Numbered from the stretch's first letter, positions 9,001-15,000 are shown. The stretch: DNA of 64,000 nucleotides from an uncultured Bacilli bacterium (GCA_947625215.1 CANQNL010000001.1:10122-74121); one strand, 5' to 3'. A program made the numbers.

Positions 9001-12000
9001 TAAAGATAAACAAGATTTATTGCTACCCTATTTAGAAAATGGCATTATTACGTTAATTGGAATGACTACGGCTAATCCTTATCATTCTATTAATCCAGCA
9101 ATCAGAAGTAGATGTCAGTTATTTGAATTTAAGCCATTAAGTGTGGATGATATTAAAGAAGGCCTTAATAAAAGTCTTAAGCTTTTAGATAAAATTGAAA
9201 TTACAGATGAGGCAATTGATTATATTGCTAATCTAGCTGGTGGCGATCTACGTTATGCATATAACTTATTAGAAGTAGCTTACTACTCTACTAAAGATTT
9301 TAAAGTTGATTTAAAGACTGTTCAAAAAATTAATAATAAGCCAAATTTATATATTGATAAAAACGATGATGGGTATTATGATGTGATAAGCGCTCTTCAA
9401 AAATCAATACGTGGTAGTGATGTAAATGCGTCTCTTCATTATTTATCTAGATTAATTGCTGCTGAAGATTTAGATATTATATTTAGACGATTAAGCGTTA
9501 TTGCTTATGAAGATATTGGTCTTGCTAATCCTAATATCGGTCCGCGATTACAAGCCGCAATTTTAGCCGCTGAAAGATTGGGCCTTCCGGAAGCCAGGAT
9601 ACCACTTGGCGAAATTGTTATTGAAATGGCTTTATCACCTAAGTCCAATAGCGCTATTATGGCTATCGATAGTGCTTTAAATGATATTTATAAAGGTAAT
9701 GTTGGTAAGGTGCCAAATCATATTAAAACTAATTCTAAAGATTATAAATATCCGCATAGTTATAAAGGAAGCTATGTGAAACAGCAGTATTTGCCCGATG
9801 AACTTATTAACCAAAAATATTATATTCCTAAGACCACTAGTAAATATGAAATTGCCATAAAACAAATATATGATAAAATACAAAATAAATAGGGTTTCCC
9901 CTATTTTTTTAATATAAATAGTTCTAAAGCTAAATTACTATTAATTTTACCCGTTTTAATATCGATATCGATATCCGCTAATTCAGATAAATAATTAAGT
10001 AATGTCTCTTTAGAATATTTTCGGCCATTTTGAATCGCCAGTTTAACCCTATATGGATGAATTTTTAATATATCGGCAATATCTTTTTCCGATAGGCCTT
10101 TTTTAATTAATTCTTTGGCCTGATACATAATTCTAAATTGATTAGAAAGCATAATAATTATTTTAATGGGCTCTTCATTCATTTTAAGCATTTCATAGTA
10201 TATTTCTAAAGCTTTACTTTTATTATCACTTACAATATAGTCTAAGAGTTTAAAAATATCCGTATCAACTTTTTTAGTAGTTACATTTATAATATCTTCT
10301 TTGGTAATTGTTTTATTATCTTTATATAATTTTATTTTTTCAATCTCATTTTTTAAAATTAAAGGATTATCTCCTACTCTATCAATTAATAAAGAAATTA
10401 AATTAGTGCTAATTTCATAGTCTTTTAAACATTCTTTAACAATTTCATAAGGATTAATATTGTCATTAAAACTTATTACTTTACCAACTTTTTTAATAAG
10501 TTTAGTTATTTTTTTTCTTTCATCCAATTTTTCATTATTAACGGTTAAGACTAAAGTTGTATTGGAATTAAAATTATTTAGATATTCCTCAATAATTTCA
10601 CTATCTTTACTTGATAATCCTGTAAACATATCCGCATTTTCACATATCACTAGTTTATTATTGCTAAAAAGTGAAAATGTTAGACAGTCATCGATGACAT
10701 CAGTAATTAAATCATTTTCTAAATCAAAATGGCTTATATTAATATCATCAAATTTTTGGGTTATTTTTTTTATCTCTTCTTTGATTAAAAAAGTTTTAGT
10801 ACCATATAAAAGATAAATCATTTAAATCACCATTTTAATTATAACATAATTTGCGCAAAAGTTAAAAATGTGTTAGAATATCTGGCGGTTATGCGGAAAT
10901 TATTAAAAAGGGGGAAATTAAATTGGAAGAAAATAAACTATTTGAATATATTAATCCAAGTGATAATGATATTTTAAGTAAAATGCCAAAAGATGAACTT
11001 GAAAATCTTTTAAATCACTTAAATACATATTATTTATCTTTAAGAGATAGTTTGAAAATAGATGAAAACATTACATTTGGAATTGAATTAGAATTCGAAA
11101 AAGTAAATAAAATATACGAAAAGTATCCCGAAATTAATTTAACTTTATATGAATACGGCTTATATAATAAATGGCAATTAAAGTATGATTCTTCATTAAT
11201 CGATGGGGGTGAGCTTATTTCCCCTATTTGTACTGATAATAAAGAAATTTGGCAAGAAATTTCTAGTATTTGTGAAATTATTGATAAATATGGTCAAATA
11301 CTTTATAATTGCTCAAATCACATACATATTGGGGCGCATATATTAGAAGGTGAATTAGAAACCTTTATGAACCTTTTAAAGTTATGGTCAGTTTATGAAA
11401 AAATCATCTTTAGATTTGGTTATGGTGAATATTTAACAGCTAGATCGAGTATTCGTTATGCAAAACCAGTAGCCGAAAATTTTAAAGAAGATTATGAGCT
11501 AATAAATAAAATGAATTATAATTTATATAGAGCTGTAATGAAATCGGCTCACGAACGTAATCAGGCTGTAAATTTTAAGGAAACATATTATTTTGATAGA
11601 AAAGAAGATAAAAACACAATTGAATTTAGATGTCCAAATGGAACAAATAATCCAGTTATCGTTCAAAATAACGTTAATTTCTTTGTAAAATTGCTTAATT
11701 ATTGTAAAAATCCTAATTTTGATAATGAAAAAATTCAAAAACGAAATGAAATAAATGGTGATAAATATAATGAACTTAAATGCTATAATGAAATATATTT
11801 AGAAGAAGCTTTAGAGCTTGCCGATATGTTATTTGATAATAATTTAGATAAAATGTATTTTTTAAGACAATATCTTAAAAATTTCGAAACGGCTTCTTTA
11901 CGTCCTAAAGTTGTTATAAATCCTAAAGCTAAATCATTTACTAAGAAAATTGCCTAAAGCTTTTTTCTTTTAATTTGCGCTAAAGTTAAAATTGTGCTAG

Positions 12001-15000
12001 AATAGTCCCCTGTTAAGGAGGAATATTTATGGCCAAAGTTATAGCTTTTTCAGGTATTGATGGTTCAGGCAAAAGTACACAATTAAAATTAGTAAAAAAT
12101 AGCCTTGAACAAAATAATCGTGTATTTGTTGCTAAAATAGCCTACTCTCCTTTAAATGATATGGGCAAAAATAAATTAATCGATAGTGTTTTAAAATGTC
12201 GTAGTGGCCTTGAAATTATTAAATATTATAAATTACTAGAACTAAATGAATGTAAAAAATATGATTATATTTTATGTGACCGCCATTTAATGTGTTATTT
12301 AGCGTATGCCCACGCTTATGGAGTTAATAATCTTAATTTTATAAGGAAGTTATTAGGTTTTGTTAAAGATCCAGATTTAACTTTATACTTTGATATTAAT
12401 GTTAATACGGCGCTTGAGCGAATTAATGAACGTGGCCGTAAAGTTGATAAAAATGAAAATTTTTATACTTTATCTAAAGCTAAAGAAGGATATGATGATA
12501 TGTTTTCAATTATGGATAACATCGAAAGGATAAACGCTAATAAAAGTGAAAGTGAAATTGCATCAAATGTTAACAATGTTCTTCATAAAAGAAAAATGAT
12601 TTAGGTGATAATTATGCGTAATTATGATTATTTAAATAAAATGAAAGAAGAAGTATCAGCTTTAGAAGATGAACTTGATAAAGCCGAGGAACATAACAAA
12701 AATATAAATAAAGTGAAGAATTTAAAAATTTTTACGAAAACTACTCAACTATTTCTTCCATATGTTTTAGCCGCTAGTATAGCGACTGGTGGTTTTGCTT
12801 TATTTAGTGATGATGTAATAAATTTTATAAATGATAGATCTAATTTGCAGCCATATGAAATTACAAAGATAGATAGTGCCGGCAATAAGGAAGAAGAAAC
12901 TGTTTATGGAAACTATAGTAGAGAGAAAAACACCATATACAAGTATTCCAAATGGGAAAAAGAAGATAATGTATATTTAAGAAACGCTGATTTATATTTT
13001 GTCCCTGACAAAAATGAAACCGAAATTGAAGATTTATTACAAAAAGATAGTCAAGAATTAGAAAATATTTTAGGTAAACCTGAATTAAAAATGGTCGAAA
13101 CAAAATATGATGTTCCCGATGAAGAACTAGCAAAAGAAAATTATATAAAAGCTGATATTTATAACCCTGATAATGAAAGTTATATAATTTTTAATAATGA
13201 AAATAGGTCAAAAAGTAGAACTTTGATGTATTTAATGGTTCTAGGTTTAGCCGAATTTTTCCCATTTGTATATCGTACATTTTTTTCCAAATTTAGATTT
13301 ATGAAAAGCATCAAAATAATTAAAGCAGAATGCCAACCTATTAATACCGATATTTTAGTAAAAAAACTAGAAATAAGACGTAATAATTATAAAAGAATGA
13401 TGAGGGGATAAATATGTTAAATATTAAAGATGAGCCTTTATTTAAATACATTAATCCAGATAATAATGATTTATTTAATAAATTAAACAGTTATGATTTG
13501 CAGGAACTATTATATTATATAGATAATTATTATTTATCACTTAGAACCACACTTGGGCTTGATAAAAATGATACTTTTGGAACGGAAATTGAGTTTGAAG
13601 ATACTATTTTACTAGCAATGTCACATTATTTAATTGATGGACTAAGAGAGTTAAAACTTCAAGATACTTGGCGATTAAAATACGATGCTTCTTTATTTAA
13701 TGGTGGTGAAATCTCCTCTCCTATTTTAACTGATGATGAAGTGTCTTGGGAGAATTTAAATAACATATGTTATTTAATAGGTCAAAATGCAGATATTGGA
13801 GATAACTGCGGAGGACACATTCATATTGGAACGCAAGCTTTAGGTGATAATTATGAATCTTGGTATAATTTTATTAAATTATGGTCAACTTATGAAAATG
13901 TCATCTTTAGATTTATTTATGGTGAGTATTTAACTCCAAGGCAAAATTTGGAAACTTATGCACCGCCAATAGCAGCCATTTTAACCAACGATTATGCCGA
14001 ATTAATTAGTAAAAATGAAACGGAAATTCGTAATATTGCGATTAAACTTGGACACGCTCGTCATCAAGCGATTAATTTTTTATCAGCTAGTGATTTAAAA
14101 AATAAAAAAAATAAAAGAAACACGATTGAATTTAGATGTCCGAACGGAACTTTAGATCCGATAATTTGGCAAAATAATATAAATTTACTTATGAAATTAC
14201 TTACATATTCTAAAAGTTCTAGGTATAATGATGATGTTATTTCAAAAAGACAAAAATTAAATGGTAATCAATATAACAATTTGAATTTATATAATGAAAT
14301 ATATTTAGATCAAGCTCTTGAACTAACTGATATGATTTTTACTAATAATTTAGATAAAATATATTTTTTAAGACAATATTTAAAATCATTTGATATTGGA
14401 ACTAAAAAATTAGAAAAAGCTAAACCATTTACTAAAACTTTGAAACCAAAAAAGCCATTAAGTTAATGGCCTTTTTTATAAAAATAATATTACAAGTGCG
14501 CCGGCGATTAAACAATAATATACAAAGTAAATAAGTTTACCTTTAAGCATAATATCTTTAAACCATTTTGTCGCAAAGAATGTTACAATAGCAGCGGCAA
14601 TAGCGCCTAAAATATAATTCATAAGTAAACTTACATCAATGCCTACTTCGATAGTATCTTTAACACCTAAAATCATTGTAGCTATACTAATTGGAATATA
14701 AAGCATAAATGAAAATTTAAAAGCCGCTTCTCTTTTTAAACCAGAAAACATTCCTCCGACTAAAGTTGCACCACTACGGCTAATTCCTGGAAGTAAAGCA
14801 ACTACTTGAAATAAACCAATTTGAATAGCATCTTTTACTGTAATTTCGCGATCATCTTTTTTACCTTTTAATTTTCTTATTAAAAATAAGAATAAAGCAG
14901 TTACTAATAAGGCAACACCAACATATTTAACATTGCTTAAATATTTTTCAATCACGTCGTTGAAAAGTAAACCACAAATACCGGCGGGAATTGTACCAAT

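Follow-up and report, generated by a model that had tools for sequence, protein, structure and literature searches.

Glutamine synthetase (GS), glutamate-cysteine ligase (GCL), the gamma-glutamyl-amine synthetases of the PuuA/GmaS type and PafA all activate the gamma-carboxylate of glutamate, and YbdK shares their fold. In its Pfam description, the Amidoligase_2 family (PF12224) is characterized by its gene neighbours, AIG2/GGACT in Firmicutes and a GATase-like peptidase in Proteobacteria, and GS-like 'putative amidoligases' of phages, plasmids and Firmicutes were reportedly described by Iyer, Abhiman, Burroughs & Aravind (2009, Mol Biosyst 5:1636). The literature searched contained no demonstrated substrate for any PF12224 member, and in full text the family appeared only in phage annotations, with no membrane-coupled form described. 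Here we analyse a locus in a 64-kb stretch of DNA from an uncultured Bacilli bacterium (GCA_947625215.1, CANQNL010000001.1:10122-74121; G+C ~26%; hereafter the window), in which two Amidoligase_2 genes, AmiA and AmiB, bracket the genes of a thymidylate kinase (Tmk)-family P-loop kinase and a membrane protein. A sequence-only reading had grouped the four genes into one operon with a shared, nucleotide-directed function. We instead favour, with a probability of about 0.6, a composite locus in which a membrane-anchored ATP-dependent carboxylate-amine ligase, probably of the gamma-glutamyl type, lies around a bystander kinase.

When one genome per species was scanned, relatives of the amidoligase turned up at 165 loci, of which the best 80 were fetched; their source metagenome-assembled genomes (MAGs) are labelled uncultured Bacilli, Tenericutes, Mollicutes, 'Clostridium sp. 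CAG:417' and 'Acholeplasma sp. CAG:878', and two contigs measure ~1.2 Mb, one of them labelled circular. Open reading frames (ORFs) were called and clustered across all loci, and the window proteins were searched against the 80 amidoligase loci with tblastn. Only one neighbour of the amidoligase (91 ORFs in 86 loci) is widely shared, namely the membrane protein (61 ORFs in 55 loci); its gene is invariably upstream and co-directional, and in ~55 of 81 loci it immediately precedes the amidoligase gene. The flanks comprise 63 independent contexts among the 81 loci, and the neighbour tallies are overwhelmingly made up of unrelated housekeeping genes. In addition, six protein clusters of 553-636 aa (P0291, P0305, P0314, P0363, P0364 and P0369) are fusions in which the membrane protein (residues 1 to ~265, through the ...NY.RL motif) is followed by a short linker and a full amidoligase. 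PF12224 is found at residues 356-529 of P0291 (36.5 bits), and P0363, which stops abruptly within the ligase domain, may be truncated. These natural fusions argue strongly that the membrane protein and the amidoligase work as one unit. The conserved unit at dozens of unrelated sites is a self-contained cassette of the membrane protein and a B-type (AmiB-like) amidoligase, an undescribed architecture within a known, uncharacterised family. Either the membrane gene or the amidoligase is expanded in tandem at L027, L037, L050, L057, L067, L074, L075 and L079.

The membrane protein matched no Pfam, NCBIfam or PADLOC family, and an initial homologous-protein search returned only the protein itself; its family came to light when HMMER was run exhaustively, and comprises 314 representative relatives, all but a few of them 255-290 aa long. 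An AlphaFold2 model based on a 61-sequence alignment (pLDDT 94.3) contains one long helix at residues 2-64 made up of a charged coiled-coil part and the first transmembrane helix (TM1), at residues 75-194 a domain rich in beta structure that also includes two short helix pairs, a second transmembrane helix (TM2) at residues 197-224, and C-terminal helices at residues 229-239 and 245-264, bearing out the earlier description of a coiled-coil/transmembrane protein and giving it two transmembrane helices. K/R-rich segments stand beside both of these helices on their N- and C-terminal sides, the loop is acidic, and the ATP-dependent domain of the fusions comes after TM2, which together argue for an N-in/C-in topology with the beta domain outside the cell. 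Near-invariant residues are found in TM1 (P49 and Y50), in the conserved C-terminal tail ...KKLEI+R.NY.RL.R (L252, N258, Y259 and R261) and in the outside domain (P70, D87, Y98, W114, Y121, R123, Y128, E162 and Y183), a pattern more in keeping with a conserved binding surface than with a hypervariable receptor. Fold searches of the PDB with the membrane protein gave no significant match, and its outside domain is of interest as a confidently modelled domain with no significant match to a solved structure. The conserved free C-terminal Arg of the membrane protein was also considered as the substrate of the ligase and was ruled out, as the fusions continue through it.

Both amidoligases scored above the curated gathering cut-off of PF12224 (22 bits), AmiA with 45.4 bits (E = 1.2e-11) and AmiB with 53.0 bits (E = 5.9e-14). 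In an alignment of 20 homologues, T54, G56, E58, E60, E62, G97, E99, S102, P103, H135, H137 and G139 are invariant, as is the block NTIEFRCPNG with E239 and R241, and the same alignment shows conserved helical extensions at the N and C termini of this subfamily. The acidic strand, the His pair and the E-x-R motif are those of a GS-like carboxylate-amine ligase, and the fold matches GS, GCL and PafA. AmiA and AmiB are predicted, from this intact catalytic signature, to be ATP-dependent GS-fold carboxylate-amine ligases. All motifs quoted in the sequence-only reading recur in the translations (TFGIELEFE / TFGTEIEFED, GGE.ISP, HIHIG and IEFRCPNG in the ligases; FSGIDGSGKSTQ, DRH and RINERGRK in the kinase). 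Its assignment of the ligases to an Amidoligase_2/GCS2 type holds for the GS-fold Amidoligase_2 part and falls away for GCS2, as neither PF04107 (GCS2) nor GS was matched in Pfam even at E up to 1.

The likeness to better-known enzymes of this fold is limited to the fold itself. A profile from the 20 homologues matched no PDB sequence at E up to 10, PafA and Dop included, and PHROGs returned weak or generic amidoligase matches only. AmiA and AmiB share the fold of GS, GCL and YbdK, and at ~350 aa are much shorter than GS. PafA and Dop resemble them at the fold level only; the fusions demonstrate that the membrane protein can do without a free C-terminus, no conserved small ORF that could be a Pup-like protein accompanies the cassette among the loci surveyed, and no proteasome context was noticed among the surveyed neighbours, with no search aimed at proteasome genes. 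Compared with PF12224 as described in Pfam, the window subfamily agrees in its profile scores and in the AIG2/GGACT neighbour of one clade. By contrast, it carries the helical N- and C-terminal extensions, it is chromosomal in uncultured gut Bacilli and not phage-borne, and its partner, encoded separately or in the same chain, is a two-helix membrane protein of no assigned family.

AmiA and AmiB are 47% identical to each other (E = 1e-100), whereas the best homologues of AmiB in other genomes are 57% identical to it. In a neighbour-joining tree of 86 amidoligases, AmiB falls in a large group having the membrane gene upstream, and AmiA falls among amidoligases without this partner (A-type), in a group that includes a clade wedged into rpoE-amidoligase-prfA-prmC. 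Because the two proteins belong to different clades, they did not arise by local duplication, and the internal duplication proposed earlier gives way to two old subfamilies brought together. Both types also stand side by side in L067 (1658-6664), which contains the membrane gene, a truncated membrane paralogue, a B-type and an A-type amidoligase, a 263-aa ORF and a 222-aa Thymidylate_kin gene, followed, as read from the sequence, by a GyrB/ParE-type topoisomerase subunit.

The kinase has a separate history from the cassette. In the closest relative (L087, from assembly GCA_947628765.1; kinase 67% identical), the order is rarA, holA on the minus strand, kinase, uppP on the minus strand, a 128-aa ORF, a polysaccharide deacetylase and queH, continuing with two bPH_2 genes, a prepilin peptidase (pilD) and gspF; this order matches that of the window, and the block contains no AmiA, membrane gene or AmiB. 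L088 and L089 have rarA, a histidine phosphatase, the kinase and holA on the minus strand, and the kinase adjoins rarA and holA in three relatives. Orthologues of the kinase are solitary in all five other contexts (L087, L088/L089 and three unrelated settings), and tblastn found this kinase in 0 of the 80 amidoligase loci. The neighbours are thus unlinked in relatives, which is half of the refuting outcome that the sequence-only reading had set for itself, and a functional four-gene partnership is not supported. The synteny with L087 indicates that the kinase is vertically inherited and that the other three genes are an insertion or deletion relative to the nearest relative; the kinase is a resident of the rarA-holA/uppP neighbourhood and a bystander to the cassette. 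Taking these observations together, the four-gene 'operon' is probably a lineage-specific composite, an accident of insertion and not a conserved pathway. Since short contigs (L001, L085 and L086) assembled from three further samples of this species show the adjacencies AmiA-kinase-membrane gene and membrane gene-AmiB-uppP again, the arrangement is not an assembly artefact.

The description of the kinase as an atypical, thymidylate-kinase-family P-loop enzyme proved accurate. It matched PF02223 Thymidylate_kin (E = 1.7e-20; 74 bits against a cut-off of 27) and reached 76.3 bits with the NCBIfam dTMP-kinase equivalog TIGR00041, under the cut-off of 83.25; in PADLOC, it gave Tmk-like matches, to PDC-M51B and VakA. 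Like bacterial Tmk, it keeps the P-loop GIDGSGKST, the DRH motif and a basic LID (RINERGRK, of the form R..R.RK), and it aligns end to end with the Tmk structures of Aquifex, Thermotoga and Staphylococcus. Unlike these, it belongs to a distinct subfamily of ~190-200 aa (P0122-P0173; ~50 clusters, 46-67% identity), set off by a gap from canonical Tmk at ~30%. We compared motifs between Aquifex Tmk (2pbr), canonical homologues and the consensus of 51 subfamily members. In the subfamily, REPGGT is replaced by Y.PLN.MG, the alpha3 Phe/Arg segment is deleted, and AYQ is replaced by AYA(Y). In Tmk structures, dTMP is contacted by the Arg in REPGGT, by a thymine-stacking Phe and an Arg in alpha3, and by the Gln in AYQ; as these motifs are lost, the kinase may phosphorylate something other than dTMP. 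No second Tmk-like ORF was found within the 64-kb window. A 223-aa Tmk group (P0195) was considered as a second tmk and rejected, belonging to an unrelated lineage with tandem Tmk paralogues; there, two tandem 223-aa Thymidylate_kin paralogues adjoin a DegT-type aminotransferase (L098 5001-6344). In two other genomes, the kinase orthologue is neighboured by a reverse transcriptase (RVT_1) of 266 aa and small ORFs (L088 9660-11479) or by an Abi_2 and HEPN_Apea pair (L096 7061-10734), which are probably defence genes unrelated to the locus.

These results bear directly on the proposal that the genes form one pathway, in which the Tmk-like kinase would phosphorylate a nucleotide or base and the two amidoligases would add amino or peptidyl groups, with a modified nucleotide metabolite as the product, or that they form a DNA base-modifying conflict system akin to phage thymidine hypermodification. 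In its favour, kinase, membrane gene and AmiB share a strand, are tightly spaced and are probably co-transcribed, a kinase without the canonical dTMP-contact motifs possibly has another substrate, and the amidoligases of L067 also lie two genes from a Tmk-family gene. In phage thymidine hypermodification clusters, 5-HMUDK is combined with aGPT-Pplase/AADT, with or without PLP, rSAM and amidoligase genes (Lee et al. 2021, PMC8989533), and amidoligase-domain genes occur in some uncharacterised viral hypermodification clusters (PMC8989533). The window resembles these clusters in having a P-loop kinase near amidoligase-domain genes. It differs in that its kinase is a Tmk-family, syntenic chromosomal gene, and in that the linkage is not conserved, with five of five kinase contexts lacking amidoligases and 80 of 80 amidoligase loci lacking the kinase. 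No aGPT-Pplase was found among the four proteins or the annotated syntenic flanks, and the best families of the kinase were Tmk, with no direct comparison to 5-HMUDK. Likewise, the cluster and its syntenic flanks contain no AADT, dUMP hydroxymethylase or TET/JBP gene, and neither a source of 5-hydroxymethyldeoxyuridine (5-hmdU) nor a viral context was seen in the cluster or flanks (rarA, holA, uppP, queH and pilus genes), the remainder of the 64 kb being incompletely annotated. The setting is chromosomal and housekeeping, viral collections hold amidoligases that are only 24-28% identical, and the membrane partner and the fusions are hard to square with a nucleotide substrate. A joint nucleotide pathway or base-modifying conflict system is therefore highly improbable, its linkage being unconserved and the hallmarks of thymidine hypermodification missing from the cluster and syntenic flanks. 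This removes a nucleotide hypermodification operon as a lead and flags a Tmk-fold kinase subfamily without the dTMP-binding residues.

All four ORFs of the sequence-only reading are present on the plus strand (Table 1). The region that it started at 10846 does contain AmiA; 10846 itself falls in the promoter region, and coding begins at 10923. For the membrane gene, the ATG at 12614 is favoured by the gene caller and by an AGGTGA site. The kinase, membrane gene and AmiB are separated by gaps of only 9 nt and 2 nt and probably form one transcript, judging from this packing. The terminator-like hairpin proper (14454-14470) stands at the end of AmiB, and an Rfam scan of the whole window gave no match, hence no riboswitch or RNA clue.

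Table 1 Features of the amidoligase locus in the window (positions counted from the first nucleotide of the 64-kb stretch).
Feature	Position	Strand	Description
AmiA	10923-11957	+	344 aa; TTG start, GGGGG ribosome-binding site; Amidoligase_2, clade without membrane partner
Kinase	12029-12604	+	191 aa; thymidylate-kinase-family P-loop kinase
Membrane partner	12614-13411	+	265 aa; in-frame alternative GTG start at 12605
AmiB	13414-14466	+	350 aa; Amidoligase_2, membrane-partner-linked clade
Promoter-like repeat copy 1, before AmiA	10847-10905	+	59-nt direct repeat
Promoter-like repeat copy 2 and kinase 5' untranslated region	11971-12029	+	59-nt direct repeat
Terminator-like hairpin and T-run, between convergent AmiB and uppP	14454-14480	.	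GCCATTAAGTTAATGGC then CTTTTTTATA

In place of the single operon start assumed earlier, two promoter-like copies were found. Their 33-nt core, identical at 30 of 33 positions, precedes AmiA (10847-10879) and the kinase (11971-12003), matching twice in the window and never in 100 shuffles, and among all loci examined the 59-nt direct repeat is confined to the species of the window. Copy 1 contains TTGCGC (10851-10856), a 17-nt spacer and TGTGTTAGAAT, an extended -10 element ending at 10879; copy 2 contains TTGCGC (11975-11980) and TAGAAT (11998-12003). The core is promoter-like, resembling an extended -10 promoter of the form TTGCGC, 17 nt, TGTG.TAGAAT. A generic consensus promoter scan did not list it, because its -35 element matches at only 3 of 6 positions.

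The kinase-proximal copy and the region upstream of the L087 kinase have in common the -35 region TAATTTGC and a CTGTT.A.GAGG leader, indicating that this copy is the ancestral promoter and that the AmiA copy is a partial duplicate. L087 also has, by our reading of its nucleotides, a hairpin-like inverted repeat directly 3' of the kinase. On the simplest account, the cassette would have inserted at the 3' end of the kinase, where it follows the stop codon directly and so probably rides on the kinase promoter, and AmiA would have inserted upstream of the kinase with a copied promoter. The alternative direction of events is a loss in L087 instead of an insertion here.

For the composite locus that we favour, the N-in/C-in membrane protein would expose its conserved beta-rich domain outside the cell, with the cytoplasmic C-terminal helices, and perhaps the N-terminal coiled coil too, holding the soluble amidoligase at the inner membrane face. 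The enzyme would use ATP to form an acyl-phosphate on a carboxylate, most likely the gamma-carboxylate of glutamate, and then join it to an amine, the target being a membrane-proximal molecule or protein. The outside domain may position the enzyme by an envelope machine, or may gate the ligase on an external ligand. Gamma-glutamyl chemistry is favoured because of the known activities of the fold relatives and because an AIG2/GGACT gene, coding for a gamma-glutamyl cyclotransferase, lies directly downstream of the cassette in L050 (5966-6427) and L075 (9001-9459). This neighbour belongs to one basal clade (2 of 81 loci) and is absent from the window cluster and most loci. In the ligase chemistry, the kinase is a bystander with no demonstrated role.

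Several points weigh against this composite reading. The substrate and the class of acyl donor are assigned by analogy, the GGACT link being confined to one small clade, and a physical interaction between membrane protein and amidoligase is deduced from their adjacency and fusions. The choice between insertion and loss rests on one close relative and on the general mobility of the cassette. A newly acquired link to the kinase is possible, as the kinase, the membrane gene and AmiB are packed as a probable transcript, and in L067 a different Tmk-family gene stands only two genes away from a B-type and an A-type amidoligase, a proximity that is probably a coincidence, with ~0.2 such cases expected over 63 contexts.

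Should the composite reading hold, the obligate pairing with a membrane protein gives this subfamily of the large Amidoligase_2 family a predicted location, the inner membrane face, and singles out two concrete components for joint expression and assay. Their unit is widespread, with at least 165 species-level genomes, in small-genome uncultured gut Bacilli, the physiology of which is almost unknown, and a lineage-typical membrane enzyme would be a useful handle on them. A bolder and rather doubtful extension is that the cassette is an undescribed transmembrane device, in which a ligand-binding outside domain of novel fold would position or switch a GS-fold ligase that gamma-glutamylates a membrane-proximal protein or an envelope precursor, reversibly by GGACT in some lineages. 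If true, it would be a counterpart of pupylation at the membrane, or would add a new kind of output domain to transmembrane signalling, in a large uncultured branch of gut Bacilli.

The membrane anchoring and the N-in/C-in topology would also suit modification of the cell envelope, with the tethered ligase, at the inner membrane face, modifying a carboxylate of a lipid-linked wall precursor (for example the peptidoglycan stem peptide) with an amino acid or an amine, and the outside domain docking on enzymes of wall synthesis or remodelling. MurF lies within three genes of the cassette in six loci (~4 independent contexts), a PBP5-type D-Ala-D-Ala carboxypeptidase within three genes in five loci, L082 has three VanY genes and a PBP5 gene upstream, and uppP and a polysaccharide deacetylase adjoin the cassette of the window. 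However, the enrichment of cell-wall genes is weak after multiple testing and residual synteny, with most neighbours being unrelated housekeeping genes, and L087 lacks the cassette but still has uppP beside the kinase. A membrane protein of two helices is no flippase, the cassette has no conserved glycosyltransferase or Mur-type partner, and A-type amidoligases do without the membrane partner. We consider this envelope model, docking included, to be unlikely.

The 63 different insertion contexts and the frequent tandem expansion of both genes raise a further explanation, that the cassette is an accessory module of small integrative elements, with a role in defence, counter-defence or the exclusion of phages; it might, for instance, sense events at the cell surface and use ligation to modify a target. 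In 8 of 81 tabulated loci (13 of all fetched), and in at least four flanking contexts, a phage-type tyrosine integrase is encoded no more than three genes upstream of the cassette, and in four loci it is adjacent. A passage of PMC11318856, citing Iyer et al. 2009, suggests that phage or prophage amidoligases modify surface receptors, which would fit such a role, as would the Tad4 domain, that of a type I Thoeris inhibitor, in a protein encoded beside the cassette. On the other hand, PADLOC-DB 2.0 held no match for AmiA, AmiB or the membrane protein, and around four integrase-bearing loci a search for att-like direct repeats gave nothing but short, AT-rich repeats attributable to chance. In most loci there is no integrase and the surroundings are housekeeping genes, the subfamily is absent from the viral collections (IMG/VR and INPHARED) beyond the distant relatives mentioned above, and the key residues of the outside domain are conserved rather than hypervariable. 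Mobile-element cargo or a conflict function is accordingly quite unlikely as the explanation of the cassette as a whole.

The Tad4-domain genes themselves form a recurrent arrangement. A protein of 380-398 aa with a C-terminal Tad4 domain is encoded between the integrase and the cassette in L006, L010, L014, L016 and L083/L084 (L083 6460-11056), and in L011 (9221-10417) a Tad4-domain protein is encoded just 3' of the amidoligase. The arrangement of Tad4 gene, integrase and cassette hints at a small integrated element with an anti-defence-like gene.

Close to the cluster, both the GC skew and the orientation of the genes change over. At 1-6.5 kb, every ORF of at least 120 aa is on the plus strand, with positive skew; from 14.4 kb onward genes are mostly on the minus strand, with negative skew, and the cumulative skew has its maximum at ~13-14 kb (window positions 1-26000). 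The switch could reflect a terminus-like convergence zone or mere local strand bias. The syntenic block downstream (16594-21497) encodes queH, a pair of bPH_2 membrane proteins, a prepilin peptidase and a GspF/PilC-like protein, of type IV pilus or competence type, and sporulation genes (spoVA, spoIIM, spoIVB and germination protease) are found in several related loci. Given the pilus- or competence-type block and the sporulation genes, the small-genome MAGs labelled 'Tenericutes/Mollicutes' look walled and may form spores.

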